The notes under the pieces: generated by a model | What the model saw: only the letters and a program-made list of their open reading frames with translations | Databases searched by the model: none | What the model was told of the DNA's origin: nothing | Translations under genes and position numbers: made by a program | Part shown: piece after piece, positions 1,497 to 59,924 of the stretch | Position numbering within the stretch: the first letter of the stretch is position 1 | How the letters are laid out: the number at the start of each line of letters is the position of its first letter | From: an uncultured Chloroflexia bacterium | GTDB taxonomy: Bacteria > Chloroflexota > Anaerolineae > Anaerolineales > UBA4823 | Direction of reading: 5' to 3' | DNA length: 64,000 nucleotides | Assembly: GCA_963827155.1 (NCBI GenBank) | Contig: CAWGZV010000002.1 | Location: forward strand, 3,287,237-3,351,236

Positions 1497-2195
1497 GTGG
1501 CGCTCATTCTGCTAGTAGACGATGAACAACTGATCACCAACTCGCTTACCTACAGCCTGAAGCGAGAGGGCTTTGATGTTGCCAATGTGGCAGATGGAAT
1601 TTCCGCGATCAAAGCTGTCGAAGAGCTCAATCCAGATCTGATCGTGCTTGATCTCATGCTCCCCGATATCAGCGGATTCGAGGTCTGCCGTCGACTGCGC
1701 ACCTTCACCGCCACGCCGGTCATCATGCTCACGGCGCGTGGAGAAGAGATCGATCGAGTCCTCGGTTTGGAAGTAGGCGCCGATGATTACCTGGCAAAAC
1801 CATTTTCCTTTCGCGAGCTTCTGGCACGCATCCAGGCGATGCTCAGAAGAGTTCAGCTCGACCGCCAGGTCTCCCAACCTCAGCCGATCTCCACCCATCA
1901 GCTGAGCCTTGACCCGGTCGCCAGGCGCACCTGGAGAGGCGATCAGGAGCTCCAGCTTTCGGCGCGCGAATTCGATTTGCTCACAGTTTTGATGAAAAAT
2001 GCTGGTCGGGCGATGAGCCGCGACGAGTTGATCAAACTGGTGTGGGGCGACGATTGGGTCGGTGATCCGCGAACCCTGGATGTCCATGTCCGATGGCTGC
2101 GCCTGAAGATCGAAGAAGATCCCGCCAGCCCTCAATATATTCAAACTGTTCGAGGTTATGGGTATCGTTTTGCAGGACCAGAAGAACTCATCTGA
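1497..2195 (+). CDS. OmpR-family two-component response regulator
   Basis: GTG start. Receiver domain (LVDDE..., LIVLDLMLPD, LTAR) followed by a winged-helix output domain (YIQTVRGYGYRF). Confidence 0.9.
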   Translation: MALILLVDDEQLITNSLTYSLKREGFDVANVADGISAIKAVEELNPDLIVLDLMLPDISGFEVCRRLRTFTATPVIMLTARGEEIDRVLGLEVGADDYLAKPFSFRELLARIQAMLRRVQLDRQVSQPQPISTHQLSLDPVARRTWRGDQELQLSAREFDLLTVLMKNAGRAMSRDELIKLVWGDDWVGDPRTLDVHVRWLRLKIEEDPASPQYIQTVRGYGYRFAGPEELI

Positions 2196-7867: not shown

Positions 7868-8305
7868 ATGATTTGGGACGCGATAATATTGGTGCTGGAG
7901 CATACCGGGATGGAAGAAAAGATCACAATTATTGAAGGACCTCCCCCTACTTTTGAAGTGGTAAGCGATGGATGGGCGCTCGGCTTGATCGAAAGCCCGC
8001 TGCTCTTTACAGTCAGCTTAACTCGGGTACGCACATTCAACGGACCGGCGCTGCTCGAACGATGCCACCGCGCCTGGCGGCACCATAGCACAATCCATCT
8101 TGAATATCGCGATGAAAACGGGCTTGATTTCGAAGCCCCAATCTTGGCGGCTCGCACCATCACTGTTGATGAAGGTCAAATGCTCCTGATGTGGGTCCAG
8201 ATGGAGATTAATCTTGAGGAAATCGATCCAGACAGCGACGATCTGGGGGATGACGATTTTGACAACGAAGATTTCGGTGACGATCTAAACTTCCCCGATC
8301 GCTAA
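7868..8305 (+). CDS. Hypothetical protein with a strongly acidic C-terminal tail
   Basis: The long ORF 7679..8305 overlaps the divergent gene, so the internal ATGs at 7868 or 7910 (MEEKITIIEGPPP) are more plausible starts. The tail is EEIDPDSDDLGDDDFDNEDFGDDLNFPDR. Confidence 0.55.
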   Translation: MIWDAIILVLEHTGMEEKITIIEGPPPTFEVVSDGWALGLIESPLLFTVSLTRVRTFNGPALLERCHRAWRHHSTIHLEYRDENGLDFEAPILAARTITVDEGQMLLMWVQMEINLEEIDPDSDDLGDDDFDNEDFGDDLNFPDR

Positions 8306-8371
8306 GTCTTATCCTAATCCATCCGATCTTTGAGCCCCTTGATTGCCTACTCAAGCCAGGGAGGGAGGGCG

Positions 8372-9151
8372 ATGTCTGATCCGGAAACCTTGAAAATCAA
8401 GCGGGACCAATCGGTTTTGGTCTTATCGATCGACCGTCCTAAGGTCAATGCCCTAAACCTGGATCTGGTCCTCCAGCTCCAAAATGCATTCCAGCTCGCT
8501 GAACGCGAGGTGGATATCCGTGCTGTTCTTCTCACTGGGGTAGGTAATACATTCAGTGCCGGGCAAGATATCTTCGAGATCCAGAAAGCGTCTGGGGAAT
8601 CCTTCAGCCGTCATCTCCAGGGTACTTACAATCCGCTTGTCCTGCAGATCCGGCGCCTGCCAAAACCTGTCATCGCGGCGATCAATGGTTCTGTGTCTGG
8701 CGCCGCCCTTGGACTCGCCCTGGCTTGCGACCTGCGCATTGGATCGGAAAATGCTCGTTTTATCGTCGGGTTCAATACCATCGGGCTTGTTCCCAATTCT
8801 GCTGTCTCTCTCCTGCTCCCTGTGCTGATCGGTCTCGGTCGGGCATCCGAGTTCACATTCACCAATGCGCCGATCAGTGCCTCACAAGCGCTGGAGTGGG
8901 GAATGGTGAACGAGATTGTGCCAGCTGACCAGTTTTATCAGCGGGCTTTTGCTCTGGCGGCCCAGCTTGCTGCTGGTCCGGTCATATCGATGGGACTAAC
9001 CAAGCGCCTTTTCAATAAAGCTGTGCTCCCGAACCTCGAACAGGTGCTTGATCATAAATCCCAACTGCAGGAAATTGCTTCAAAAACCGAGGAGCATGTC
9101 GAGGGAGTGGCAGCGTTCCTGGAAAAACGCCCTCCAGCATTCAAGTCGTAG
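8372..9151 (+). CDS. Enoyl-CoA hydratase/isomerase family protein
   Basis: Crotonase pattern (TFSAGQDI, INGSVSGAALGLALACDLRIG). ATG 8372 is preceded by GGGAGGGAGGG. The track start at 8330 is a TTG. Confidence 0.85.
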   Translation: MSDPETLKIKRDQSVLVLSIDRPKVNALNLDLVLQLQNAFQLAEREVDIRAVLLTGVGNTFSAGQDIFEIQKASGESFSRHLQGTYNPLVLQIRRLPKPVIAAINGSVSGAALGLALACDLRIGSENARFIVGFNTIGLVPNSAVSLLLPVLIGLGRASEFTFTNAPISASQALEWGMVNEIVPADQFYQRAFALAAQLAAGPVISMGLTKRLFNKAVLPNLEQVLDHKSQLQEIASKTEEHVEGVAAFLEKRPPAFKS

Positions 9152-9201
9152 GAAATCTCCCAGAAAAACCACCCTGCTGACCGCTGCCAAATCGCCTCAG
9201 C

Positions 9202-9948
9202 TCATGCCATAAAGATCTTCAGGGCTGCTAGAAATGCAAAAACGCCTCCAACGAGCAAACCGGCACGCAGCGTCTCTCCCGACCCGCGTAGATCAGTGAC
9301 CGGAGAATAAGGATCCTGCCTTTGGTAGAGCGGACCGGCTAACCAGGCAAATGTTGTTCCCCCAACCAGACCTCCCAGGTGCCCCCAGTTGTCGATCCCA
9401 GGTCTTAATCCGATCACCAGGTTGATCACAGCAATGGTCACCACATTGGTTAGCGAGCGCCGCGCCATAGGTCCAAATAATTTCCGGTTCTGGTAGAAGA
9501 ATACCCCTTCCGCTCCCAACAGCCCAAAGATTGCAGTAGATGCTCCCAGCGATGGCTCAACCGAAAACAGAAACGAGGCTACATTTCCAGTAAATCCGCT
9601 CAGCAAATAGAGTGTCAGGTACCGCCCCCGCCCATAGAACCGCTCCAACCCTGTTCCGATCACAAAAAGGGCGTACATATTAAAACCGATATGCAAAACG
9701 GAGGCATGCAGGAACATCGGTGTGAACAGGCGCCAGATCTGCCCCTGGATGATCAGCTCGTTCACCTTCATTCCAAAAGCTGCCGGCAGATCAGTTCCCA
9801 ATAGATACTGCGAAGCGAACTGAAGCCCATAAACCGCGATCGTAATCGCCATGAGTGAATAGGTAACAACCGGCTTCCAGCTTTTATTCATTCCGATCGC
9901 ACCTCCATCTGGCGCAGTCGGGGGACTATCTTGTTCGATGTTCGTCAT
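9202..9948 (-). CDS. Rhomboid-family intramembrane serine protease
   Basis: Six or more hydrophobic helices. Motifs FLHASVLHIGFNM, the catalytic GASTAIFGLLGA and HLGGLVGG. The start overlaps the gmk stop (ATGA). Confidence 0.85.
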   Translation of the reverse strand: MTNIEQDSPPTAPDGGAIGMNKSWKPVVTYSLMAITIAVYGLQFASQYLLGTDLPAAFGMKVNELIIQGQIWRLFTPMFLHASVLHIGFNMYALFVIGTGLERFYGRGRYLTLYLLSGFTGNVASFLFSVEPSLGASTAIFGLLGAEGVFFYQNRKLFGPMARRSLTNVVTIAVINLVIGLRPGIDNWGHLGGLVGGTTFAWLAGPLYQRQDPYSPVTDLRGSGETLRAGLLVGGVFAFLAALKIFMA

Positions 9949-10568
9949 AGCGCTACCTTTCTGTGGCGTACCCGGTGATGTTCTGCTGCGATGATCGCTT
10001 CAATCAAATCCAGAGTGTCTTCCAGGTGATCATCCTGGTTGATAACTACATAGTCAAACAACCCGATTTGCTTGAGTTCTTGCCGCGCCATCGCGATCCT
10101 TAACTTCAATCCTTCGGCATCTTCGCTTCGGCGGACTGTAAGCCTTCGAACCAGCTCGTCCTCGTCTTTCGGTGCCAGGAAGATCAGCAAGGCTTCGGGC
10201 ACCAGCTTGCGTACCGTGTCAGCCCCCTGCACATCCACCCGCATCACTACATCTTTGCCTGTCGTAAGCGCTTCCCGCACCTGCTGTTTGGGTACACCTT
10301 TATAATCCTCGTAAACGATTGCGTACTCGAGCAGCTCACCCTGCTCGATCATCTCGGCAAATTCATCCTTACTGAGGAAGAAATAATGTTCCCCATGCTT
10401 CTCTGTTGATCGTCGCGCCCGGGTAGTTGCGGTAATTACAAAGTGAAAAGGCAGCCCTCTCTCGCGCAGTCCCTCGATAACAGTGTCCTTTCCCGCCCCA
10501 GAAGGTCCGGAGATCACAATCAGGAGCGGCTCGGGGGTTAATGGATAAAATTCGTTTTCAGAAGACAC
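9945..10568 (-). CDS. gmk: Guanylate kinase
   Basis: P-loop ISGPSGAGKDT and the conserved TTRARR...GEHYFF pattern. Confidence 0.9.
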   Translation of the reverse strand: MSSENEFYPLTPEPLLIVISGPSGAGKDTVIEGLRERGLPFHFVITATTRARRSTEKHGEHYFFLSKDEFAEMIEQGELLEYAIVYEDYKGVPKQQVREALTTGKDVVMRVDVQGADTVRKLVPEALLIFLAPKDEDELVRRLTVRRSEDAEGLKLRIAMARQELKQIGLFDYVVINQDDHLEDTLDLIEAIIAAEHHRVRHRKVAL

Positions 10569-10648
10569 GCTAACCTCGTTGCATATTTTGGATTGGGTTG
10601 ATTATAATTTCAAAGTACTTTCGAACAACAAAACTCATGGGAGGTAAT

Positions 10649-11727: not shown

Positions 11728-13303
11728 AGGAATGTGAGACCAGGTTCGCCTCTCTTGCCATTTGGTGCTGAAGCCTTCGGATTGAAGATGCCGCCGGGTG
11801 AAGCTCCACCCACCGCTCCCCATTCATGACAGCGTCAATTGCGCCGCGCGTCTCTTCTACCACGGCATCGATCGCAACGTTGCCCTGTTCGTCCGTATAA
11901 AGATTGAAAAGGTCGCCGAGGAACTGCTGCATCTGGTTCACTGTATTTGAGCGCAGCACATAGATCGGGATGCTTCTGTTCTCGGCGTCTGAGATCGTGC
12001 GTTGACGTTTGCGGTAATATGAGCGCAGCGTCACAAGCACATCCGCTTCACCTGGCTGGTCAACAATTGTCGCAGGTACAGCCAGCCGCCGCGCCGCCTG
12101 GACCAACCGGTTCCGCGCCACGCCATAAGGATAAATCTTCATGGGCTGCAACCCATTCCGACCTCGCCCCGGCATTGCCGGCTCAGGATAACGCCTCATG
12201 GGTTCATTTTCGAAGGGAGGGGCTTGCTGAGCGTAGCGCTCTGATGAGGGTTCATTCCCCTGGCGTCGGAAACCCTGCTGTCCGGTTGAAAGAGGCCGGT
12301 TTGGCGCCGGCGCTCGTTCAATTCGTATCTCCCCATCGATCCTCTCGCGGATCTCTGGAGGCAGCGGATATCCTCGCAGCAAGGAGTCCACTGCCGCAGC
12401 AACATCCGGGTGGACTGCAACTCGTTCTCGATTCTGAATCTCGATCAATACATCGAATGTTGGCGGAGCTCTCCGCTCGAGTACAGTCTTTTGGGTGCCG
12501 CGTCTGCGCGCTTCCTCATCCGATAGGGTGACGGATTCAATCCCTCCAACCAGGTCAGAAAGAGTTGGGTTCAGCAGCAGATTCTCCAGATTATTACCAT
12601 GCGCAGTTCCAATTAATTGAACTCCCCGCTCGGCAATCGTGCGTGCAGCCGCTGCTTCCAGCTCGCGGCCAATCTCGTCGATCACAATCGCTTCTGGATT
12701 GTGATTTTCGACAGCTTCGATCATCACCTCATGTTGAAGTGAAGGTTTGGCAACCTGCATTCGCCGGGCGCGTCCTACTGCGGGGTGAGGGACATCGCCA
12801 TCGCCACCTATCTCGTTCGAGGTGTCAACAATCACCACTCGCTTTGTCTCAGCCAGGATGCGTGCGGCTTCGCGCAGCATGGTTGTTTTTCCAACCCCTG
12901 GCCTCCCTAAGATCAGCAAACTTTTCCCACTCTCGATCAGGTCCTTGATGATATCCGTAGTTCCATAAACCGCCCGCCCAACCCGGCATGTCAGCCCTAC
13001 AATATAGCCGCGTCGGTTGCGGATGGCTGAGATCCTGTGAAGGGTTCGCTCTAATCCAGCCCGGTTGTCCGCGTCAAATTCCCCAATCCGCTCGACTACG
13101 AAGTCGATATCTTCGTCCGCGACATCAATTTCCCGCAGCGGCACTTCTCGAAGGACAAACCGCGCCGTTGGAATTCTCCCCAAATCCATAATGACCTCAA
13201 GCAGATTGTCGCTATCGTTGGCTTCTTTCACTGCCTCTGCAATCGGCTTGGGCAACACAGACATCAGGGCTTGCAGATCATCGGTAATTTTCTTCTGATA
13301 CAT
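11681..13303 (-). CDS. R3H-domain AAA+ ATPase (Ycf45/SpoIIIAA-like)
   Basis: Walker A LGRPGVGKTT, Walker B VIVDTSNEIGG / IVIDEIG. The C-terminal R3H-like end is VSHSYGKEPNRRVRIF. Confidence 0.8.
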   Translation of the reverse strand: MYQKKITDDLQALMSVLPKPIAEAVKEANDSDNLLEVIMDLGRIPTARFVLREVPLREIDVADEDIDFVVERIGEFDADNRAGLERTLHRISAIRNRRGYIVGLTCRVGRAVYGTTDIIKDLIESGKSLLILGRPGVGKTTMLREAARILAETKRVVIVDTSNEIGGDGDVPHPAVGRARRMQVAKPSLQHEVMIEAVENHNPEAIVIDEIGRELEAAAARTIAERGVQLIGTAHGNNLENLLLNPTLSDLVGGIESVTLSDEEARRRGTQKTVLERRAPPTFDVLIEIQNRERVAVHPDVAAAVDSLLRGYPLPPEIRERIDGEIRIERAPAPNRPLSTGQQGFRRQGNEPSSERYAQQAPPFENEPMRRYPEPAMPGRGRNGLQPMKIYPYGVARNRLVQAARRLAVPATIVDQPGEADVLVTLRSYYRKRQRTISDAENRSIPIYVLRSNTVNQMQQFLGDLFNLYTDEQGNVAIDAVVEETRGAIDAVMNGERWVELHPAASSIRRLQHQMAREANLVSHSYGKEPNRRVRIFREG

Positions 13304-23385: not shown

Positions 23386-23467
23386 TGCCGAAGGTGGGAA
23401 TCGAACCCACACTCCCGAGGGAACACGATTTTGAGTCGTGCGCGTCTGCCAGTTCCGCCACTCCGGC
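23386..23467 (-). tRNA. tRNA-Leu (anticodon CAA), long variable arm, no encoded CCA
   Basis: The reverse complement folds as a cloverleaf: acceptor GCCGGAG/CTTCGGC, anticodon stem CACGA/TCGTG with loop CTCAAAA, variable arm TTCCCTCGGGAGT, T-arm GTGGG-TTCGATT-CCCAC. Confidence 0.9.
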
Positions 23468-48538: not shown

Positions 48539-51500
48539 ATGAGCAATCCGTTGAATTTTCAATCCATTATCTTGAAACTCCAAGATTTTTGGGCAAGCCG
48601 GGGCAGTCTTATCTGGCAGCCTTATTACGCTCAGGTTGGTGCAGGCACATACAACCCTGCCACGTTTCTGCGGGTCTTAGGCCCCGAACCATGGAACGTC
48701 GCCTATGTAGAGCCCTCCATCCGTCCGGACGATGGGCGATATGGTGAAAACCCAAATCGTATGCAAATGCATTATCAGTTCCAGGTCATTCTCAAGCCCG
48801 ATCCTGGCAACCCGCAGGAGATCTACCTCGAGTCACTCCAGGCGATCGGGATCGACCCTCTTCAGCATGACATCCGCTTCGTCGAAGATAACTGGGAATC
48901 GCCCGCCCTGGGTGCCTGGGGGCTTGGTTGGGAGGTGTGGTGCGATGGGCAAGAGATTACCCAATTCACCTATTTTCAGCAAGCCGGCGGAATCCAGCTT
49001 GATCCGGTCTCTGTCGAGATCACATATGGCTTGGAGCGGATCGCGATTGCGCTTCAGGGTGTAGAAGGTTTTCAGGATATTCAGTGGAATGAAACCCTTA
49101 CCGATGGAGACGTGAATCTGCAGGCTGAAGAAGAGCACAGCCGATATTATTTTGAAATTGCCGATGTCGTCCGCCTTCGCCAAATGTATGACCTCTACGA
49201 ACAAGAAGCACAAGCCTGTCTGGAGAAAGGTTTAGTACTGCCTGCCCATGATTATCTTCTAAAGTGCTCGCATACTTTCAATATACTGGATACTCGTGGA
49301 GCAGTGGGTGTCACCGAGCGTCAGGGTTTGTTCGCTCGGATGCGCGATGTGGCGAAAGGCGTCGCCCAGGCTTATTTGGATCAGCGCCAGCGACTTGAGT
49401 TTCCGCTCCTCGACAAGGCTCAGCTCTTGCATCCACAAATGGACGATGTTTCTCTAACCCCCCAGATTTCCCCTGGACCTATTACTGATCTCCCTGAGAA
49501 AGGTGCATTCTTGCTTGAAATTGGAGTCGAGGAGCTCCCTGCTGGCGATCTCGATTCTGCCCTTTATCAGCTTGGAGTCTCTGTTCCGGCTCTATTGGCA
49601 GAACTGCGGCTTGCATATCAGGTTCTGCAAGTGATGGGTACGCCCCGTCGTTTGGTGGTCGTAGTTGAAGAGCTTGCCTCTCGTCAGGCAGACCTGGAAC
49701 AGTGGATTAAGGGACCTCCTGCCGACAAAGCTTTTGCACCTGATGGCTCGCCGACCAAAGCAGTCGAGGGTTTCGCTCGCAGCAAAGGTATTTCAATTGC
49801 AGATTTGGAAATCCGTGAAGTTGAAGGTGGGCGGTATGTCGGTGCCCTGGTGCACCAATCAGGGAAATCGATAGTAGAAGTCTTTGCCGAGGCTCTCCCG
49901 AAGCTGATTGCCTCAATCCGCTTTGAAAAGCCTATGCGCTGGAACCCGAGCAATGTCCTTTTCTCGCGGCCGATTCGTTGGCTGGTGGCGATCTTCTCTC
50001 ACGGTGAAGACTGTACAATAATCCCTTTTGAATTCGCCGGTTTGCTTTCCGGATGTGTGACCAAGGGGCTGCGTTTTAGAATGCCTTTGGAATATTGCGT
50101 TCATTCGCCTCTTGAATATTTCGATTTTCTATCATCTCAAGGCATCGTGCTGGACTCAAACTCCAGGCAGGCTACGGTGAGAGAACAAGTTGCCGCGCTT
50201 GCAAACTCTGCTGGGGGAGTGGTATCCAACGATCCAGAGCTGTTTGCGGAAGTGACAAATTTGGTCGAAGCGCCAACAGCTCTGCTCGGCTCGTTCAATC
50301 CCGACTACCTCAAGCTTCCGCCTGAAGTACTCATCTCGGTTATGAAAAAGCACCAGCGCTATTTCCCGGTGCTTTCTGGTAAGAAAGTTTCTGCCGAGGA
50401 AGTGCCGCTGCCTTGTTTCATCGCCGTCAGAAATGGCGACAATGAAGGTCTAGATACTGTAGTGGAAGGGAATCAACATGTGATTCGCGCCAGGTTTGCG
50501 GATGCGAATTTCTTCGTGCGTGAAGATCTTAAGAAACCGCTTGAAGACTACCTCCCACGCCTGTCCACGCTTACTTTTCAAGCGCGGTTGGGGACTATGA
50601 GAGACAAGGTCACTCGGATCCAGGCTCTGGTTGAAGACCTGAGTCAACAAGTTGGGCTGGATAATGACCAGCTTCGCACGGCACGCCGCGCTGCGCTGCT
50701 CTCTAAAGCCGATCTGGGCACAAGGATGGTAGTTGAGATGACATCCTTACAAGGTCAGATTGGCCGTTACTATGCGCTGCGCTCAGGCGAAATGAGGGAA
50801 GTCGCCCAGGCGATATTAGATCATTATTTGCCCCGGCATGCAGGCGACCAGCTGCCCGCCAGCCGTCCGGGTCTTGTAATCGGTCTGGCCGATCGCCTGG
50901 ATACACTCGCCGGGTTGTTTTCTGCTGGATTAATCCCTTCAGGCAATAAAGATCCATTCGCCTTGAGGCGCCATGCCCTCGGTCTCGTCCAAATCCTGGT
51001 CTCGTGGGATATCGATTTTAATATCGATGAAGGACTGTGTCTGGCTGCCTCGCATCTTCCTATCTCTAGCAGCACCGAAATACTATCTGCCTGCTCGAAC
51101 TTTGTGGTAGAGCGCTTTCGAAATATCCTGTTGGATCAGGGACGTCGCTATGATATTGTCGATGCTGTCCTGGCGGTTCAGGGCCATAATCCGGCGGCAG
51201 CATCACGGGGGGTTGCACAGCTTCAGATATGGACCTCCCGCCCGGATTGGCACCGGATCTTGCCAGCTTATGCCCGTTGTGTGCGCATTACCCGGGATCT
51301 TGAGGAGCAATTTGAAATTGAAAGCAGCCTATTTGCAGAGCAAGCCGAGCGTGATCTCTACCATGATTTGGTCCAGGCTGAGCAGCTAAATCCATCATCT
51401 GCTTCTGTGGATCAATTTCTTAACACTTTTCTGCCCATAATTCCAGCGATTGATCGTTTTTTTGAGCAGGTGCTGGTAATGTCCGAAGACCACCAGATGC

Positions 51501-51583
51501 GTCAAAACCGCCTGGGTTTGCTGCAGCGGATTGCATTATTGGCAGAAAGGGTTGCTGACCTCTCTCGTCTCGAAGGTTTTTAG
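48539..51583 (+). CDS. glyQS: Glycine--tRNA ligase, fused alpha and beta subunits
   Basis: The N-terminal ~290 aa is GlyQ ([33 protein letters not shown]). The remainder is GlyS-like. Single 1014-aa ORF. Confidence 0.9.
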
Positions 51584-51608: not shown

Positions 51609-51640
51609 GTGCTGCACATATATGTGCAGCACTCTTTATT
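51609..51640 (+). terminator. Rho-independent terminator of glyQS
   Basis: Perfect 24-bp palindrome GTGCTGCACATA|TATGTGCAGCAC (51609-51632) followed by TCTTTATT. Confidence 0.7.
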
Positions 51641-51737: not shown

Positions 51738-51766
51738 TTGACTTATGCTAAAAAGCATGTTATTTT
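51738..51766 (+). promoter_or_regulatory. Sigma-70-like promoter with an inverted repeat in the spacer, upstream of the small-peptide gene
   Basis: TTGACT (51738-51743), a 17-nt spacer containing ATGCT-aaaa-AGCAT, then TATTTT (51761-51766). Confidence 0.5.
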
Positions 51767-51864
51767 ATTGAAAATTACCTAACAATTCTGCAAGGTAACC
51801 TTTCAAGAATGTAAGGTGATTATATCAGAAAAATTTAGGGAATAAAAAACACAGGAGGCATAAA

Positions 51865-52074
51865 ATGTCGTTAGCAAAAGTGGTATACCAATTATCAACC
51901 GACAACGATTTTGCATCACAATGGAAAGTTGACCCAGAAGGCACTTTAGCCAAACAGGGCTTGCGCCTGACGAATGAAGAGTTGGCTTTCCTCAAAAAGG
52001 GTTTGAAGCGCCGCACCGCCGATCAGGTACGACTGTCTGACCTGCTCTACAAGGCTCGGGATTGGGGCGTCTAG
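51865..52074 (+). CDS. 69-aa candidate RiPP/pheromone precursor (NHLP/Nif11-like leader pattern; ComX-like C-terminus ...RDWGV)
   Basis: AGGAGG lies 6 nt upstream of the ATG. The N-terminus LSTDNDFASQWKVDPEGTLAKQGLRLTNEELAFL fits the D..F......DP...L...G..L...E....L leader pattern. There is a basic stretch KKGLKRR and the C-terminus is LLYKARDWGV. Confidence 0.6.
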   Translation: MSLAKVVYQLSTDNDFASQWKVDPEGTLAKQGLRLTNEELAFLKKGLKRRTADQVRLSDLLYKARDWGV

Positions 52075-52170
52075 ATCGATCCTGTCCTGGAGTAATTATC
52101 AATTTATCTTCAATCTTATATCGAGCAAGTCTGGCATGATTATGGAGCATGGCCCGATTTTCGTCGGACG

Positions 52171-53130
52171 ATGCTTCATGTTTTAAATTTGCAGCAGAAC
52201 GAAGCAGAAAAATTACCCTGGCTGCGCCTACCGGGTATGTGCTGTCAGGCACTCGGAGGGGATCCGCATCAGGCGGATCCGGTCGCGGCTGCCTGGATCC
52301 TGTTCAACAAAGCAGCCCACATTATGGATAGCGTCGAAGATCGCGATGAGCTGAATTCTTGGTCTATCGAATCTCTTCCCGAAGCCCACACAAATTCAGA
52401 TGCAAAGACTGCTACCGGCTACAAGAATAGCAGTGCCACGGGCGCAACCTATGCCACCGCTATAAGCGCTGCAACTGGTTTGTATTTCACAGCCAACTTG
52501 ATCCTGCATGACCTTGATGCCAGGCTTGCTTACCCGGCAGCGGCCCAACAGATCAGGGCTGAGTTCCTGAGCCGTTTTTTGGTGATGTGCTGCGGTCAAC
52601 ATTTGGATTTGATCCAGCCGAATCCAACGATTGAACAATACTATAAGATTGCTTCCGCCAAATCAGGGGAATTCTTTGCGGTTGCCTGTTGGGCTGGGGG
52701 GCGTCTGGCATCGGACCAATTTGAGGTGCTGGCTGGACTGCGCCAGTTCGGCCTTCAAATCGGGTTGATTATCCAGATGCTGGACGATTTGAAAGACCTG
52801 CGAGAGTTGAGGATCATCCCAATCGCCAACCGTGCTGCCAGGCTTCTTCGCTCCCTCCCGGTCATCTATGTCTTGGATGTCTTGCCAGAGAGTGAAAAAA
52901 ATCGTCTTATCTCGTTGTTCATAGAACCTCAACTTACATCAGAGCATGAAATTGAGATCCATGAGCTTATCGAAGGCAAAGGGGGAACGCTCTACCTGCT
53001 TGCCGAATTGGAAGGAAGCCGCCAGATGGCTGAAGATGGTCTGGCGCAGGCGGGTATTAAAAATCCTCATATCAGCCCTCTGCATGCGCTTCTTAATCAG
53101 CTTTGCAGCCTTGACCCAAATGGGGGTTAA
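52171..53130 (+). CDS. Divergent polyprenyl-synthase-fold protein (ComQ-like candidate peptide prenyltransferase)
   Basis: Family landmarks are present: AAHIMDSVEDRD (degenerate first Asp-rich motif), CGQHLDL, KIASAKSGEFF and IIQMLDDLKD (intact DDxxD). It lacks GKRxRP, the RRG after motif 1 and the GK..D..K.T segment after motif 2. Confidence 0.75.
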   Translation: MLHVLNLQQNEAEKLPWLRLPGMCCQALGGDPHQADPVAAAWILFNKAAHIMDSVEDRDELNSWSIESLPEAHTNSDAKTATGYKNSSATGATYATAISAATGLYFTANLILHDLDARLAYPAAAQQIRAEFLSRFLVMCCGQHLDLIQPNPTIEQYYKIASAKSGEFFAVACWAGGRLASDQFEVLAGLRQFGLQIGLIIQMLDDLKDLRELRIIPIANRAARLLRSLPVIYVLDVLPESEKNRLISLFIEPQLTSEHEIEIHELIEGKGGTLYLLAELEGSRQMAEDGLAQAGIKNPHISPLHALLNQLCSLDPNGG

Positions 53131-53185
53131 TCTATTTTTAGATTCTTTTCGCTGAAGCCGACTCCGGTCTAAAAGACACCCTTTG

Positions 53186-53194
53186 TGCTAGAAT
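53186..53194 (+). promoter_or_regulatory. Possible extended -10 element (TGCTAGAAT) only 9 nt upstream of the kinase ATG
   Basis: TGC+TAGAAT at 53186-53194. No SD is visible before ATG 53204, so the transcript may be leaderless. This is speculative. Confidence 0.3.
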
Positions 53195-53203
53195 CGAAAT
53201 GAT

Positions 53204-56053
53204 ATGGAAACAGCGCGTGTGACACGCTCCAACACGCTCCTGCGCTGGGTGGCATTTCTGCCGCTCATTTATGCTGTCTTGGTGTTCGCTTTTATCCTTG
53301 GCACAACAGTAAAACTCATTTCCTTCCCAGATGATGGCATCGATAGTGTAAATTCGTCCGGCGAGGTTCAGTCGCTCGCCCCAGCTGGCCCAGCTTTCGG
53401 AAAGCTTCAAGAAGGAGATATTATCATTTCTGTGGAAGGGGTCCCCTTCAGCAGCGGCGCTACAAATTACAGCGCCCTTGATAAAAAGGGTGGTTCTGAA
53501 GTGGAGTTTAAGGTCTTGCGCCAGGGAATATTGACGACAGTCACTGTTCGCCTGGATGCACCATCCCGCGACCTGGTCATGAGCCGGATGGCGGCTATCC
53601 TGATTGCGCTAATGTTTTTGCTGACCGGTATAGGCATCGACGCATTTAAACCATCCGGCTCTGGCAACATGATCTATTCAATCTGGTTCTACACCTGCGC
53701 CCTTACTTTGACTGCAGGTGCGGCATCGACCATGCGGATTGGTTTTTCTACTGCGTTATTTTACATCTGTCTCTGGATGATTGGGGCGGTCTCGGTTCAC
53801 TTCCATATGCATTTTCCCCAGCTGATCCGCTGGCGCCTGAAATATGTATTTCTCTCGATCCTTTATTTCATCAGTTTCTTAGGGATTGCGCCCCTCATCA
53901 TTTTTGGAACTGTCAAGTTTAGGGCTTTCAGCTGGTACCCACAGTTTTTAGGGGCGAGCCAGATCGTCTTATCCATCAGCCTCTTTTTCGTAGTGGCTTT
54001 GTTGATTTTTAGCTATCGGAGCGCAGATACACCTGGCGTGCGCGGAAAAATCCGGCTGGTTTTATTAGGCGGCATTCTGGTGGTTATGCCGTTTATCAGC
54101 CTCACGATCCTTCCGACAGCATTGTTGGACCAGCCGCTGATCCCATATTCAATTGCCTTCCTCTTGCTTGGGCTTCTCCCGCTTACCTATGCATATGCTA
54201 TTTTTCGCCTCCATCTGATCGAGATCGACCAAAAAGTCAACCGCGGTGCGACCTTGATCCTGGTCTATTCGATCCTCGGAGGATTTTACCTGGTGCTTTA
54301 TGCGCTGCTTAACCGTTACCTTCCCACCAGCTTTCGCACCATCCCACTGATCAATACCTTCCTGGTGCTGGTGCTCGCCACCATTTTCATCCCTCTTCAT
54401 CGCTGGGTTCAGCGTATGGTGGACCGCATTTTTTATGGGGGTTGGTACGATTATCGCATCGGCGTTCGTCAAATCACCGAGAACATCTCGCAATTGACAG
54501 ATTTGCAGAGCCTTGCCCAAACGGTAAGCGAGCGGCTTAAAAATACGCTCAGGCTCGAGGAGGCTGTCGTTTTCTTCCGGGATCAGAATGGCGACTTTGC
54601 AGTGGTCGAGGCTTCATTTAGTGGAGGAATTAAAGAACACGAGCGCCGGGAATTCCCGGTCCTGCCGCGCTCCAGCCTAACTTATCTCCTAAAAATCGGC
54701 GCGGCCGAACGTACTGCTCTGCTTCAATCGCTCAGTCAGATAACCCTCACCCCCGAAGAAGTCCAACTTCTCAAAACCGAACAGATCCACCTTTGGGTGC
54801 CCGTGATTGGTCATCAGCAAATTCAGGGCTTGCTTGCCTTGGGACCAAAGATCGGAGGAGACGTATTTAGCGGCGAGGACCTAGACATCCTGCGCGTGGT
54901 CGTTCAGCAACTGAGCCCGATTATCGAAAACATTCATCTGCTTACCGACCTTAAACAGCACGCCTCCGAATTGGAAAAACGGGTTGAGGAGCGTACCGCC
55001 GAGCTCTATGATGCGAAAGAGCGAGTGGAAGCAATCCTGGCAAGCGTAGGAGATGGAGTAGTCGTAACCGACCTCGAGGGCCAGATCTTGACAGTCAATC
55101 TGGCTTTCGAGAGGCTCTCTGGCTTCTCGTCTGTTGAGATACGCGGACAAAATCTTTTCGATATCTTGTCCTCTGAAAACGGCGTTGCGCGCATTTCTGC
55201 AATGAGGGATACTCTTCTGAATGGAGATATTTGGAGTGATGAGCTGGTTGGGCGGCGCATTGATAACAGCCAATACAATATCCAGTTCACCATAGCCCCT
55301 ATTCACGATCGCCAGGGTCAGCCAGTCGGTTATGTTGGAAGCCAAACAGATATCAGCCGTCAAAAAGAGCTCGATAAAATGAAGGATGCCTTTATTTCAG
55401 ATGTCTCTCATGAGCTTCGCACTCCAATTACCAACATCAGCCTTTATATTGAACTCTTGAAATCTGCACCGGTTGATCGTCACTCTCGCTACCTTGAAAT
55501 CGTTAAGGAACAGAGTTCGCTCCTAACCAAATTGGTTGAAGATATCCTGGACCTCTCGCGGCTTACTGCATCGAAGACCAGACCTGCTGTTTTTTCACCC
55601 ATCCAGCTGAATAAACTCGCCGAACAGGTCGTTACAGCTTATTTGCCGCTAGCCGAGGCTTCAGGGGTAAATCTGGTCTTCCAACCCGATCCCGATCTAC
55701 CGGTCGTCCAAGTCGAACAAAATCAAATCGCCCGCCTGATCACGAACCTGGTAACGAATGCGGTCCGTTACTCGCCCAAGGGGCAGGTCTTCGTCAGTAC
55801 TACCCAGGATCTGGGATGGGTTTCTATAAAAGTTGAAGACACCGGGATTGGCATCGACCCGCACGATATTCCGCACATCTTTGAGCGGTTTTTCCGCGGA
55901 AGCAATGTGCGCCAATCGGAAATGCACGGCACCGGACTTGGATTGGCAATCGTCAAGGAGATCGTCGATTTCCATGGAGGCACCATCGAAGTCAACAGCG
56001 TTCCGGGGGTCGGTTCTTGCTTCCAGGCCTGGCTCCCCATGACCCAGTTATAA
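53204..56053 (+). CDS. Multi-TM sensor histidine kinase (TM, PDZ-like, ~9 TM, GAF, PAS, HisKA, HATPase_c)
   Basis: PDZ-like GPAFGKLQEGDIIISVEGVPF...VEFKVLRQG, then a long polytopic region. After that come a GAF-like and a PAS segment (VGDGVVVTDLEGQILTVNLAFERLSGF), the H-box SHELRTPIT and the G-box GTGLGLAIV. Confidence 0.9.
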   Translation: METARVTRSNTLLRWVAFLPLIYAVLVFAFILGTTVKLISFPDDGIDSVNSSGEVQSLAPAGPAFGKLQEGDIIISVEGVPFSSGATNYSALDKKGGSEVEFKVLRQGILTTVTVRLDAPSRDLVMSRMAAILIALMFLLTGIGIDAFKPSGSGNMIYSIWFYTCALTLTAGAASTMRIGFSTALFYICLWMIGAVSVHFHMHFPQLIRWRLKYVFLSILYFISFLGIAPLIIFGTVKFRAFSWYPQFLGASQIVLSISLFFVVALLIFSYRSADTPGVRGKIRLVLLGGILVVMPFISLTILPTALLDQPLIPYSIAFLLLGLLPLTYAYAIFRLHLIEIDQKVNRGATLILVYSILGGFYLVLYALLNRYLPTSFRTIPLINTFLVLVLATIFIPLHRWVQRMVDRIFYGGWYDYRIGVRQITENISQLTDLQSLAQTVSERLKNTLRLEEAVVFFRDQNGDFAVVEASFSGGIKEHERREFPVLPRSSLTYLLKIGAAERTALLQSLSQITLTPEEVQLLKTEQIHLWVPVIGHQQIQGLLALGPKIGGDVFSGEDLDILRVVVQQLSPIIENIHLLTDLKQHASELEKRVEERTAELYDAKERVEAILASVGDGVVVTDLEGQILTVNLAFERLSGFSSVEIRGQNLFDILSSENGVARISAMRDTLLNGDIWSDELVGRRIDNSQYNIQFTIAPIHDRQGQPVGYVGSQTDISRQKELDKMKDAFISDVSHELRTPITNISLYIELLKSAPVDRHSRYLEIVKEQSSLLTKLVEDILDLSRLTASKTRPAVFSPIQLNKLAEQVVTAYLPLAEASGVNLVFQPDPDLPVVQVEQNQIARLITNLVTNAVRYSPKGQVFVSTTQDLGWVSIKVEDTGIGIDPHDIPHIFERFFRGSNVRQSEMHGTGLGLAIVKEIVDFHGGTIEVNSVPGVGSCFQAWLPMTQL

Positions 56054-56156
56054 CTGTTTCCCGTTTGGTTCCAAACGATCAGGCAGCCTGCTTACTGCGC
56101 TCACTTTCATCCATCAGGTATAATCCGGACTGACCTGAGATTGGAGCCTCTTTTCC

Positions 56157-58118
56157 ATGTCGGTTGTTGACGAAATTAAAAATAGGATCGATATCATCGA
56201 TCTGGTCGCCGAATCCGTGCAGCTGCGTCGTTCGGGTAAAAACTACTCTGGTTTTTGCCCGTTTCATCCGAACCAACGCACGCCAGCATTCGTTGTTTTC
56301 TCGGATACTGGCACATGGCGTTGTTTTGGTCAGTGCAACGAAGGCGGGGATATTTTTCGCTTCATTATGAAGAAGGAGGGCTGGGATTTTCCAGAAGCTC
56401 TCCGCTATCTGGCAGATCGAGCTGGAATCCAGCTAAAACCACAAACTGAACAGCAGCAGTTGGAAGATGATGCCCATGATGAACTGCGGCAGATCCTGGA
56501 GCAGGCCGTCTCATTCTTTCGTGGGCAACTCATTAACACCTCCCAAGGGAAAAATGCCCACCAGTACCTGGTCGAAAAACGAGGCTTACAAGAGGAGACG
56601 ATTGAGACATTTGGCATCGGCTATGCTCCGCGCTCTTGGGATACCTTGAAGGTCCATCTCACCGCGAAAGGCTATAATATTTCGAACCTGCTCGCCGCAG
56701 GCCTTCTTAGCGAGCGTGAGCCTGGGATTGGTTCAATTAATCCACAGGGACTTAATTCGAACGAAGTCTTCGACCGCTTCCGCCACCGCATCATGTTCCC
56801 CATCCGTGATGGGCGTGGCCGCATGGCTGGATTTGGCGCACGCATCCTCGATCCCGACGATATCCCAAAATTTCTCAATTCTCCCCAATCCCCTATCTTC
56901 GATAAAGGTCATCTGCTTTATGGATTAGACCGCGCCGGTAAAACGATCCGTCTCCGTGACCAGGCAGTGATTGTTGAAGGGTATCTGGATGTCATTGCCC
57001 TGCATCAGGCTGGTTTTGATAACGCCGTCTCCCCAATGGGGACTGCACTGACCGAGCACCAACTTTCCATCCTGAAACGCTACAGTCGCCGTATCATCCT
57101 GGCGCTTGATTCCGACGCGGCAGGTGCAAAGGCGACTTTACGGGGCCTGCAGATTGCTCGCCAGACAATGGATCGTGAAGAGGATACTCGCTTTGATGCC
57201 CGTGGTTTGCTGCGCCATGAAGCCCGCCTTCAAGCCGATATTCGGGTCACTACATTGCCGTCAGGGCTGGATCCTGACGATCTAGTCAACCGCGATCCAC
57301 AGGAATGGCAGCGGATCATTGACAATGCTCGCCCGGTTGTGCTTCATGTTATGGAGACACTCGCCTCAGACCTTGATCTGGAAGATCCGAAAGCGAAAAA
57401 TGAAATAGCCGCTCAGGTTATCCCTCTCATCGAAGATATCCCAAGCCCAATCGAACGCGATACTTACCGCCAGCGGCTTGCCCGTCTGCTGCGGGTGAAT
57501 GAACAGGTCTTGCTCGAGATCAGCCCGCGCACCCACCGTGTAATTTCCGGCGCTCGCCGCGGTATGACTACCTCCGCTCCTGAGAAACCCGTTCAATCTC
57601 CAAAAACCAGGGCTATGAGCAGCTATGGTCTCGAGGTCCATTGTCTTGGCATCTTGCTCCGCAGCCCAGGGCTGCTTTACCAGGTGGATCGCGGGCTGCA
57701 GCAAGAAGGGCTCGCCAGGCTTTCATCCGATGATTTTGAGCATGCCGATCATCAGGCGATCTTCCGGCTTTTCCAAGAATCGATCGATCAGGATCTCGCA
57801 GAGCCGCTCAATTATGTCATGAACAACCTCTCTCTTGAAATGATGGAGGTTGCCGATGATCTTCTTGCGCGGACGACTGAGCTGGATCCCAATAAGGATC
57901 GCGTCCTGGAGGATTTAATGCGTGGGCTTTTAGATCTACGCCGCCGAAAGTTGCATCACGAGATTGAATATCAGCGTTTCATAATCGAAGAAGCCCCCGA
58001 TCCGGCCGATCTCCGGGCATCATTAATGATCCAAAATATGGTCCAGCTGGCAGATGCGAAACGGCGAATCGATCGGGCCATGAAAAAATATACCAGCCGG
58101 CTGCCGTCCACTCACTAG
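56157..58118 (+). CDS. dnaG: DNA primase
   Basis: Zinc finger CPFHPNQRTPAFVVFSDTGTWRCFGQC and TOPRIM (VIVEGYLDVIALHQAG, LDSDAAG). Confidence 0.9.
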   Translation: MSVVDEIKNRIDIIDLVAESVQLRRSGKNYSGFCPFHPNQRTPAFVVFSDTGTWRCFGQCNEGGDIFRFIMKKEGWDFPEALRYLADRAGIQLKPQTEQQQLEDDAHDELRQILEQAVSFFRGQLINTSQGKNAHQYLVEKRGLQEETIETFGIGYAPRSWDTLKVHLTAKGYNISNLLAAGLLSEREPGIGSINPQGLNSNEVFDRFRHRIMFPIRDGRGRMAGFGARILDPDDIPKFLNSPQSPIFDKGHLLYGLDRAGKTIRLRDQAVIVEGYLDVIALHQAGFDNAVSPMGTALTEHQLSILKRYSRRIILALDSDAAGAKATLRGLQIARQTMDREEDTRFDARGLLRHEARLQADIRVTTLPSGLDPDDLVNRDPQEWQRIIDNARPVVLHVMETLASDLDLEDPKAKNEIAAQVIPLIEDIPSPIERDTYRQRLARLLRVNEQVLLEISPRTHRVISGARRGMTTSAPEKPVQSPKTRAMSSYGLEVHCLGILLRSPGLLYQVDRGLQQEGLARLSSDDFEHADHQAIFRLFQESIDQDLAEPLNYVMNNLSLEMMEVADDLLARTTELDPNKDRVLEDLMRGLLDLRRRKLHHEIEYQRFIIEEAPDPADLRASLMIQNMVQLADAKRRIDRAMKKYTSRLPSTH

Positions 58119-58121
58119 TTC

Positions 58122-59924
58122 ATGATAAGATTGAAAAATGCGTGCATTGGACCGCTGTACATTCAAGCTGCAACGGATGGCGGCATGATCTCCAGGACCC
58201 AGAAAACACTCCCAGAATCCCCGGATCCAGCCCAAAAACATGTTGATCAACAGTCACCAGGGCCCCTCGCCGCCGACTTCCCATCCGAACAAAATCCGGC
58301 AGGCGAAGAAGAATCTCCCATCGAGGACTTAGAAGACCTGGTGGATGAAAATGATGACCTGCTCAATGGTGATGAGCTTGTGGAACAAGAACCCCTCTTC
58401 GCGGTTGAGGATATCGATGAGGAGAGTATCTCTCTGGAAGCCGATGAAATCGAAGCTCTAGTAAAAGCGGAGCCGTTAGAGTTTTTTCGCGACCAGAGAG
58501 GGTTGACCGAGATCAATGAAGATCCGGTTAAACTTTATCTCAAAGAAATCGGAAATATCGATCTCCTCACACAGGATCAGGAATTCTGGTTAGCTACCCG
58601 ATTGGAAGCGGATCGCAGGCTGGAGGTGCTTGCCCGTCAGCACCCTCTTGCTCGGGAAAACAAGTCGCCTGACGCGGCCGCTGGCGAAAAACAGAGTGAT
58701 CTTAAAGATGCCGAATCTGCCCGACGCACATATCGTGCTTTATACGAAGACTTGACCACGCATTGGTCGAGAGTCTTGGTGGATGCTCGCCGTCTAGATT
58801 TCCAGCAACCAGACCTGCAGCTACTGCTTTCAGAGGCGCAGATGCTTCGCTCTACCTGGCAGAGCAATGTTCCATCCTATCTTCGCGCCTACCTGGATAA
58901 TGGCCTGTGGGGCAATGATCCTTTATGGAATGGCTTCGCAAAAATTGCGTTTATGGTTTTCCTTTACCTCTACACCATCCCTAAGATTATGGATGCCCCA
59001 TTCCAAAAGTATGTAGAACACCACGGTGAGCTTCCCAGTGAAGCCACCTTTACGCATTACCTCCCCGACAAATACGTGCTCCAGTCTGAGATCGAACAGA
59101 TTCACAGCCGCTGCGAAGAGGCAAATATCGCCATCATCCGCGCCAACTTGCGCCTGGTGGTGAGCGTTGCAAAAAGATACACCGGCCGCGGCTCCTCTTT
59201 CCTAGACCTGATCCAGGAAGGGAATATCGGTCTGTTGAGAGCTGTCTCGAAATTCGATCCTACCCGCGGCTTCAAATTTAGCACGTATGCGACCTGGTGG
59301 ATTCGTCAATCGATCAGCAGATCAATTGCTGACCAGGCTCGAACAATTCGAATTCCCGTGCATATCTTTGAATCACTCAACCGGTTATTGCGGATCCAAC
59401 GGGAGCTCATCCAGAAGCTTGGCCGCGAACCAACCATCGATGATATCGCTCTTGAAGCAGGCTACTTGGAGCCAAAAGATCGCCAGGCGATACTCCGCGC
59501 CATCCAGGATTCTACCCCGGTGGAAGCCGATGTCCGCCGGAGATGGAATCGCGCTTCTGCAAAGGTCAACCGGATTATGCGCGCCATGGAAGAGCCAATG
59601 TCGCTGGACAGCCCCATCGGTCCTGAAGACAGCAGCCAGCTCGGGGATTTTATCGAGGACGAAGAAGCCCAGGAGCCAATGGATGCTGCAGCACGTGAAA
59701 TGCTGCGTGAATCAGTAAAAATTGCGCTGGCAGTGCTTTCAGATCGCGAGCGTGAGGTTTTAGAACTGCGCTTTGGTCTGGTGGATGGAAAGGATCATAC
59801 GCTTGAGGAGGTTGGTCAGTACTTCAATGTAACTCGCGAGCGCATCCGCCAGATTGAATCCAAGGCGCTGCGCAAGCTCCGCCATCCAACCCGAAGCCGC
59901 CATCTGCGCGACTTCCTGCGCTGA
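58122..59924 (+). CDS. rpoD: Primary RNA polymerase sigma factor (sigma-70) with a long acidic N-terminal extension
   Basis: Regions 1.2-4 are present: [65 protein letters not shown]. Starts 4 nt after the dnaG stop. Confidence 0.9.

Follow-up and report, generated by a model that had tools for sequence, protein, structure and literature searches.

What is the function of three consecutive genes, for a small peptide, an enzyme and a sensor histidine kinase, that lie on one strand between glyQS and dnaG-rpoD in the genome of an uncultured Chloroflexia bacterium? The stretch analysed (64,000 nucleotides of contig CAWGZV010000002.1; hereafter the window) had been read in an earlier note as carrying a ComX/ComQ/ComP-like module for signalling by an isoprenylated peptide, outside its known Bacillus-type context. 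The three same-strand open reading frames (ORFs) of 69, 319 and 949 amino acids are present where that note had placed them (Table 1), in the order X-Q-P, and the peptide does end in YKARDWGV. We computed the presence, conservation and linkage of the genes, their domain architecture, the homology of the enzyme to ComQ, and the patterns of motifs and of divergence. The module of this Anaerolineales-type Chloroflexota genome is likely to be homologous, if divergently so, to the ComX-ComQ-ComP quorum sensing system of Bacillus, and to signal via its kinase. That the first two genes form a ComQ-like pair for the prenylation of tryptophan (Trp) is highly probable, and signalling through the kinase is a reasonably probable reading.

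Judged by its conservation, the small ORF is a real gene, far beyond what chance would produce. The database holds 20 homologues of 67-100% identity, and each related locus whose sequence extends sufficiently far upstream contains a copy. Comparison of the window with its relatives gave saturation at synonymous sites (pS 0.7-1.0) and a pN of 0.11-0.32, thus the peptide is under strong purifying selection, with dN/dS well below 1. Across the 20 homologues a conserved leader of ∼48-58 residues is followed by a variable tail, in which W67 is the sole invariant residue. One or two residues follow this Trp in 41/41 sequences, so that it is never terminal, and the peptides of 21 genomic loci end in WRD, WRG, WR, WRA, WA, WF, WM, WQF, WG, WGA or WGV. 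Trp67 is the predicted prenylation site. The leader had been likened in the earlier note to NHLP/Nif11 leaders of peptides that ribosomes make and that are modified after translation (RiPPs); there is a match to NCBIfam NF038399, an NHLP-clan RiPP precursor model (34.7 bits, E 1.4e-8), but the score is below the cutoff of 40. The match to TIGR03793 is weak, and alignment of the precursor with PalX, the NHLP-type precursor of Paenibacillus alvei, gave E 0.14 in hhalign. One related locus (L016) carries two tandem precursor genes (2361-2576 and 2606-2821), with identical tails ...VHRGWM, upstream of one enzyme gene.

Related loci were gathered via the contigs of enzyme homologues and by using the enzyme alignment to scan the genomes of species representatives; the scan gave 19 loci, all from Chloroflexota or Anaerolineales metagenome-assembled genomes. 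A Trp-tailed small ORF and a polytopic kinase beside the enzyme, the co-occurrence that had been proposed as a check, were found in each of the 26 related loci of sufficient extent, as X-Q-P on one strand and with the kinase always directly downstream of the enzyme. The flanks vary. Some loci have glyQS and dnaG-rpoD, as in the window; others have a divergent Lactamase_B gene upstream and a REC-HD-GYP regulator right after the kinase (L004/L005/L028, L022, L026); one has KYNU_C and NAD synthase (L007), and there are further arrangements, including that of L020. Because the flanks differ between loci, conserved synteny alone cannot explain the linkage.

About half of the related genomes carry the module at the same glyQS/dnaG position. 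In L004, the REC-HD-GYP regulator (11916-12887), of the RpfG-like cyclic di-GMP (c-di-GMP) phosphodiesterase type, begins a few bases past the kinase stop, a placement shared by the other Lactamase_B-context loci (L005, L022, L026 and L028), and this suggests a c-di-GMP output for that branch.

The enzyme has the polyprenyl-synthase fold that the earlier note had assigned to it, yet few of the determinants of a chain-elongating synthase. Its match to PF00348 is partial (45.7 bits, residues 95-211 only; Pfam), its top NCBIfam match reaches 57 bits against a cutoff of 450, and the AlphaFold2 (AF2) model (pLDDT 84) has the all-alpha fold of isoprenyl diphosphate synthases of the trans type (trans-IDS). 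A Foldseek search with this model did not separate geranylgeranyl diphosphate (GGPP) synthases from the indole prenyltransferase Ord1 and was uninformative for function, as the authors of the StheQ study likewise found (bioRxiv 10.64898/2026.08.29.745113). The enzyme family comprises 430 representatives of 50%-identity clusters (E<=1e-30), and motif statistics rest on the best 150 of these, all scoring >205 bits. In these 150, the first Asp-rich motif (FARM) follows the pattern [M/L]-D-x-[V/I]-[E/Q]-D-x-D, in which Asp1 and Asp5 alone are conserved throughout (D53 in 145/150, D57 in 144/150, the remainder being gaps or one Glu), and the second position (54) varies between S, D, N and A. The second Asp-rich motif (SARM) reads Q-I-x-[D/N]-D-L-x-[D/G/E], with Q202 in 146/150; either D or N occupies position 205, the residue at 209 is one of D, G and E, and an N-D pseudo-SARM is present in 10/150. 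The RRG that should follow the FARM is absent from the enzyme family, which has D-E-P-D-P-W-W there (MDSVEDxDEPDPWW), and GGKRxRP is absent too, with LPGLCCQAxGG in its place. Since residues that bind isopentenyl diphosphate (IPP) and the second metal are lost in the family, chain elongation with IPP is unlikely. The best PDB profile match of the family is Ord1 (9V4G, 68.6 bits), and in this alignment D53/D57 fall on the Mg-binding D85/D89 and Q202/D205 on the catalytic Q216/D219; the SARM region also aligns to Q197/D200 of PalQ, the P. alvei prenyltransferase.

For a direct comparison with ComQ, a genuine comQ-comX-comP' contig (L031) was recovered from metagenomes with the back-translated C-terminus of ComX-168. 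It encodes a ComX with the C-terminus ADPITRQWGD, a ComQ of 299 aa and the N-terminal 354 aa of ComP. In hhalign, the family profile aligned with this ComQ at 96.8% (E 2.7e-10) over 240 columns that include the FARM, with Escherichia coli IspA at 85% (E 6e-6) over 124 columns with the FARM outside the alignment, and with PalQ at 2% (E 0.023), in the SARM region only. The ComQ segment DIMDDLEDEDNHHALW is aligned with HIMDSVEDxDEPDPWW of the family, the FARM of ComQ being IMDDLEDED, and the alignment shows that ComQ shares the same losses of IPP-condensation determinants. The scores on PF00348 are near equal (46.4 bits for ComQ, 45.7 for the window enzyme). The profile check put forward in the earlier note thus came out in favour of its reading: the PF00348 match is partial, the IPP motifs are lost, and the alignment to ComQ is stronger than that to IspA. 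These comparisons indicate that the enzyme is a trans-IDS-like homologue of ComQ, with a provisional place in the ComQ branch.

The kinase likewise agrees with what had been described, namely a first transmembrane (TM) helix, a PDZ-like loop, about nine further helices and a GAF-PAS-HisKA-HATPase cytoplasmic part, with a transmitter of the HisKA rather than the HisKA_3 type (Pfam and hydropathy). Hydropathy places TM1 at residues 16-34 and TM2 at 130-148. A profile of the loop between them matched in the PDB only PDZ domains, those of DegP, DegQ, DegS, RseP and YlbL, with E down to 5e-12, and a weak PDZ signal of the same kind is seen in all homologous kinases. It is on this profile search that the assignment as a PDZ domain is based; a single-sequence structure model (pLDDT 48) was discarded. 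The polytopic region is kept in all kinases of the family, HisKA_3-type ones included. For Bacillus ComP, an AlphaFold analysis gave ten transmembrane segments (TMS) with a PDZ domain in the extracellular TMS1-TMS2 loop, which was proposed to bind ComX (PMC9620489). The recovered ComP fragment has the same layout as the window kinase, with TM1 at 14-32, a PDZ match at 37-80 and TM2 at 122-140. Thus the window kinase sensor and ComP share their architecture; homology between the two sensors is plausible but unproven.

Divergence was assessed between the window and ten syntenic genomes. Identity to the window is 64-70% for GlyQS, 67-81% for DnaG and 61-79% for the cytoplasmic domains of the kinase, whilst it falls to 45-51% for the enzyme and 36-53% for the PDZ loop, and the peptide tail is variable around the fixed Trp. 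The enzyme, PDZ loop and peptide tail therefore diverge faster than the flanks and the kinase core. In Bacillus pherotypes, comQ, comX and the sensor part of comP are polymorphic (comQXP'). The pattern seen here matches that polymorphism and fits a co-evolving signal, modifier and receptor.

Two of the ten representatives with an N-D pseudo-SARM could be placed in genomic context, and these represent sister branches. In L029, the peptide has 74 aa, shares the leader motif and has a tail that ends in EPEPWWIP; it is followed by the enzyme, a membrane protein of 405 aa, a kinase of the HisKA_3 type and a REC-GerE regulator. In L030, a leader-enzyme fusion is followed by a GAF-HisKA_3 kinase and a REC-GerE regulator. 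A hidden Markov model (HMM) of the window-family sensor matched the L029 membrane protein with E 5e-60 and the N-terminus of the L030 kinase with E 2e-91, and did not match PalP, the P. alvei kinase. Because the sensor HMM matches these proteins, the conserved unit is the peptide, the enzyme and the PDZ-polytopic sensor; branches differ by exchange of the transmitter and regulator. The earlier note had called the system independent or very divergent. Of the two, a divergent homologue is favoured over independent invention, because the sister branches keep HisKA_3 and REC-GerE, as ComQXPA does. The PDZ-polytopic sensor (8247-9464) and HisKA_3 kinase (9461-10633) of L029 were called as ORFs that overlap by 4 nt, which is either a genuine split or a frameshift.

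Leader-enzyme fusions of 400-436 aa are found in L030 (1989-3299) and in P0155, P0157, P0183, P0202, P0204 and P0209. They consist of a leader-like N-terminus (M.L..V..R.VTD..FA...), a conserved W-Q-x-L-C-x-P segment and the prenyltransferase-like enzyme, and could be self-priming enzymes, enzymes activated in cis by a leader, or gene-call run-through.

Set beside ComQXPA as a whole, the module has the Trp third from the precursor C-terminus (RQWGD in ComX, RDWGV in the window), a trans-IDS-like enzyme with the motif IMD(D/S)(L/V)EDxD....W and without RRG or GGKRxR, a kinase in which TM1 and an extracellular PDZ domain precede about nine further TM helices (PMC9620489), hypervariability of enzyme, peptide tail and sensor relative to the flanks, and no dedicated protease or exporter. 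The two differ in several respects. The gene order is Q-X-P-A in the one and X-Q-P in the other, the leader of the window peptide is NHLP-clan-like and ComX168 is not among the matches of the peptide profile, and the SARM of ComQ has G/N-D where the window keeps DD. A HisKA_3 transmitter is replaced by GAF-PAS-HisKA, an adjacent ComA has no counterpart in the window and a REC-HD-GYP regulator in some sister loci, and the host is a member of the Chloroflexota rather than the Firmicutes.

Some of these differences, together with further results, count against a ComQXP-like signalling module. The transmitter of the window kinase is PAS-HisKA, with no HisKA_3 match, and no response regulator adjoins the module, as the earlier note had already remarked; the single one in the window is of the OmpR type (1497-2195), has its own HAMP-HisKA kinase (2158-3666) and is unrelated to the module, so that the module kinase is an orphan here. 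Neither a protease nor an exporter gene is encoded within the module. The similarity of the window sensor to ComP is not significant at the level of sequence (E 0.08-0.15 in HMMER, at high bias; E 0.027 in hhalign, at 21% identity and colinear over 257 columns). For the enzyme, the family profile scores ComQ no closer in HMMER (51.7 bits) than Ord1 and type-I GGPP synthases (65-69 bits), thus the assignment to the ComQ branch rests on motifs, hhalign and gene context. The window SARM is a canonical DDLKD, therefore metal binding there is possible. Finally, the leader is 67-88% identical, more than the enzyme, and may therefore serve beyond enzyme recognition.

For the prenylation chemistry and its donor, cleavage and export, the pairing of ligand with receptor and the downstream output, we infer the following scheme. 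The conserved helical leader would dock the 69-aa precursor on the ComQ-like enzyme, where a single FARM-bound Mg2+ would hold geranyl or farnesyl diphosphate. The prenyl group would be transferred, without IPP condensation, to the indole of Trp67, positioned by Gln202 and Asp205. The leader would be removed and a short lipidated C-terminal peptide released, roughly ...YKARDWGV with the prenyl group on its Trp, which would be sensed outside the cell by the TM1-PDZ-polytopic sensor of the kinase. Within this sensor, recognition of the free C-terminal residues probably falls to the PDZ domain, and uptake of the prenyl group probably to the membrane helices. In this genome the PAS-HisKA transmitter would signal to a non-adjacent regulator; in the sister loci the partner would be the adjacent REC-HD-GYP protein, of the c-di-GMP phosphodiesterase type, and in the distant branches a ComA-like REC-GerE transcription factor.

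A different account of the same genes is that they yield a natural product of the RiPP class with a prenyl group, for instance a lipopeptide that is antimicrobial or acts on membranes, rather than a pheromone, with the kinase regulating or coordinating its production on some other cue. Leaders of the NHLP clan are typical for RiPP natural products, prenylated Trp peptides may have antimicrobial activity (PMC13290415), and the related products of PalX and StheX have no assigned biological role (PMC10853753; bioRxiv 10.64898/2026.08.29.745113). We nevertheless consider this account unlikely. No transporter, immunity or protease genes accompany the module in any context, and the only gene that accompanies X and Q throughout encodes a kinase whose extracytoplasmic PDZ sensor is of the ComP type. 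Moreover, the PDZ loop, the enzyme and the peptide tail co-diverge faster than the flanks, as is expected of a ligand-receptor pair.

It is less credible still that the 69-aa protein is prenylated near its C-terminus at full or nearly full length, in a CaaX-like manner, and acts as a cell-associated, lipid-anchored partner or modulator of the kinase that does not diffuse. The strong conservation of the 48-residue leader (67-88%, above the enzyme) would accord with this, as would the lack of an encoded processing protease, the position of the Trp at a fixed distance from the C-terminus, like that of the Cys in CaaX, and the natural leader-enzyme fusions. An unprocessed cytoplasmic protein without signal peptide would, however, not reach the extracytoplasmic PDZ loop. 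ComX leaders, moreover, are removed by a protease encoded outside the cluster. NHLP-type leaders are normally removed, and PalX was cleaved by cell lysate (PMC10853753).

That we have here a conventional isoprenoid enzyme of class 1 (the 319-aa protein being a synthase of GGPP or farnesyl diphosphate), with the small ORF and kinase as mere syntenic neighbours, is very improbable in spite of the JGI/NCBI annotations ('geranylgeranyl pyrophosphate synthase' or 'class 1 isoprenoid biosynthesis enzyme'), the GGPP synthase-like fold and HMMER scores and the DDLKD of the window SARM, given that GGKRxR and RRG are missing, the FARM is D-S-x-E-D, the family's SARM has degenerated, the three genes stay together where the flanks are unrelated, and real ComQ scores equally weakly on PF00348.

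A ComQXP-like module of this kind is not unprecedented, because PalPXQ (2023) and StheQ/StheX (2026 preprint) have been published. StheQ of Sphaerobacter thermophilus, also of the Chloroflexota, farnesylates Trp68 of the 69-aa StheX, and crystal structures are available; the preprint mentions no kinase, receptor or signalling component (bioRxiv 10.64898/2026.08.29.745113). Both precursors have 69 aa, with W68 prenylated in StheX and W67 the corresponding residue in the window. Compared by published description, StheQ resembles the window enzyme in its trans-IDS fold, its single Mg2+ at Asp1/Asp5 of the FARM and its Q-x-x-(N/D)-D-x-x-D motif, and, going by the published numbering only, D82/D85/D89/D91 and K174/Q212/N215/D216/D219 of StheQ correspond to family positions 50/53/57/59 and 164/202/205/206/209 with constant offsets. 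It differs in gene order (Q then X) and in its pseudo-SARM (ND vs DD). The StheQ numbering was matched by none of the top 150 representatives, and no Sphaerobacter is among the named members of the ND type.

The PalP/PalX/PalQ system of P. alvei has the same three-gene logic, in that its NHLP-type precursor bears a conserved Trp at the C-terminus, its Trp prenyltransferase is trans-IDS-like and a kinase is encoded beside them (PMC10853753); PalQ has QxxDDxxD, and the kinase is polytopic and of the HisKA type. However, PalX is a classical NHLP precursor that contains a VIPP motif and whose Trp is strictly terminal, and PalQ requires this terminal Trp, being inactive when residues follow it (PMC10853753), whereas in the window family one or two residues follow the Trp. 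PalP lacks the PDZ-polytopic sensor and is transcribed convergently, and PalQ has no PF00348 match. With the real Pal locus (L008), recovered through PalX, at hand for comparison, membership of the window enzyme in the PalQ family was considered and rejected: BLASTP found nothing, hhalign stayed at the 2% given above, HMMER gave -0.1 bits, and neither the kinase sensor nor the peptide has significant similarity. Ord1, an all-alpha prenyltransferase for indole from Streptomyces, matches the family profile best among PDB entries and has aligned catalytic residues, but acts on free indole/tryptophan, keeps RR after the FARM and has no peptide or kinase partner (PMC12510300).

A KEGG-based survey lists the ComP-ComA pair as present in Chloroflexi (PMC8895600). 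In the literature we found no description of the Anaerolineae X-Q-P family, its PAS-HisKA variant or its HD-GYP link. The claim of a module outside its known context thus holds in part only, in view of PalPXQ and of StheQ/StheX from the same phylum. The variant features of the module are its X-Q-P order, its PAS-HisKA transmitter and the lack of an adjacent regulator.

Table 1. Positions of the module, its parts and its neighbours in the window
Feature	Position	Strand	Remarks
Fused glyQS gene	48539-51583		5' neighbour of the module
glyQS terminator hairpin	51609-51632	+	Perfect 12+12 nt palindrome, then T-rich tail; 5' module boundary
Promoter-like element	51738-51766	+	TTGACT, 17 nt, TG-TATTTT; 9/12 consensus matches
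Shine-Dalgarno AGGAGG	51853-51858	+	6 nt before the peptide ATG; read from sequence
comX-like precursor peptide gene	51865-52074	+	69 aa, C-terminus YKARDWGV
Predicted core/pheromone region LYKARDWGV	52045-52071	+	Invariant Trp67 codon at 52063-52065
In-frame upstream extension of enzyme gene	52096-52170	+	Encodes conserved N-terminal helix IEQVWHDYGAWPDF
comQ-like trans-IDS-fold enzyme gene	52171-53130	+	319 aa as called; predicted peptide Trp prenyltransferase
Modified FARM, D53-S-V-E-D57-R-D59	52327-52347	+	Predicted Mg2+/prenyl-diphosphate site
(Pseudo-)SARM, Q202-M-L-D205-D206-L-K-D209	52774-52797	+	With upstream Gln; predicted indole-positioning site
comP-like sensor histidine kinase gene	53204-56053	+	949 aa
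Extracytoplasmic PDZ domain, residues 46-117	53339-53554	+	PDZ_2, 27.9 bits; proposed ligand-binding site
Polytopic membrane region, residues 130-398	53591-54397	+	∼8-9 TM helices; hydropathy
Cytoplasmic GAF 433-571, PAS 606-718, HisKA 727-789, HATPase_c 839-947	54500-56044	+	Pfam
dnaG/rpoD	56157-59924		3' neighbours of the module

The surroundings of the three genes agree for the most part with their earlier description. The glyQS terminator directly upstream is a perfect hairpin, and the near-perfect Shine-Dalgarno sequence is there (Table 1). The promoter ascribed to the module is present as a sequence, but promoter-like sites in the region are at chance level (6 found vs 5.1 expected in shuffles), and the element can be taken as promoter-like on weak evidence. 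Read-through from the peptide into the enzyme was rejected because two stop codons (TAG at 52072-52074 and TAA at 52093-52095) separate the two genes, which share one frame. A terminator-like hairpin was not seen on the + strand between the kinase stop and dnaG (56053-56157), and the module may be transcribed by read-through into the dnaG-rpoD operon. A search against Rfam found no RNA element near the module, the sole match at the gathering threshold in the 64-kb window being a single tRNA gene (23386-23467, - strand), and the repeats around the module are trivial ones only.

The enzyme ORF is of 319 aa as called, but its true start is probably further upstream. The stretch at 52096-52170, after the TAA stop, is in frame with the enzyme and has no ATG, GTG or TTG, and a conserved helix upstream of the called ATG is likewise seen in at least six other loci (L003, L004, L010, L015, L019/L024 and L020). 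Translation probably begins at a non-canonical codon, ATT at 52102 or ATC at 52120, which suggests a systematic N-terminal truncation of annotations of this enzyme. Right after the FARM there is a low-complexity insertion of ∼32 aa (ESLPEAHTNSDAKTATGYKNSSATGATY..., 52357-52455, residues ∼63-95), which among 20 aligned homologues is present in the window protein and its 88%-identical relative only, and is disordered in the AF2 model (pLDDT <50).

Prenylated-peptide quorum sensing has long been regarded as a speciality of Bacillus and the Firmicutes. The Anaerolineae are dominant filamentous organisms of anaerobic digesters and sediments, and to our knowledge essentially nothing is known of their cell-cell signalling. 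The locus and its relatives supply the link to a receptor, since a kinase of ComP architecture is always encoded beside the peptide-enzyme pair, and suggest that signalling by lipid-tagged peptides is widespread in the Chloroflexota, for which so far only an enzyme-peptide pair has been published, in one preprint. With 430 cluster representatives the family is a large one in the Anaerolineae, and it yields specific predictions, namely that Trp67 is modified, that the peptide C-terminus binds to the PDZ domain, and that the output in the sister loci runs through REC-HD-GYP. The predicted acceptance of a Trp followed by one or two residues, unlike that of PalQ, could broaden the toolkit for enzymatic peptide lipidation.

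A wider and rather doubtful idea, which we offer tentatively, is that ComQXP-type signalling is ancient and widespread in the Chloroflexota, with a conserved unit of peptide, enzyme and sensor, an output that was rewired repeatedly and a PDZ domain that reads 'W-x(-x)'. If so, the rewired outputs would be HisKA_3 with REC-GerE, PAS-HisKA with REC-HD-GYP (c-di-GMP), and the orphan kinase between glyQS and dnaG-rpoD, and hundreds of 50%-identity clusters would be involved. The reading of a lipidated peptide C-terminus by the PDZ domain would give pherotype-like specificity, and a peptide quorum signal would be coupled to c-di-GMP turnover in the filamentous anaerobes of sludge and sediments.

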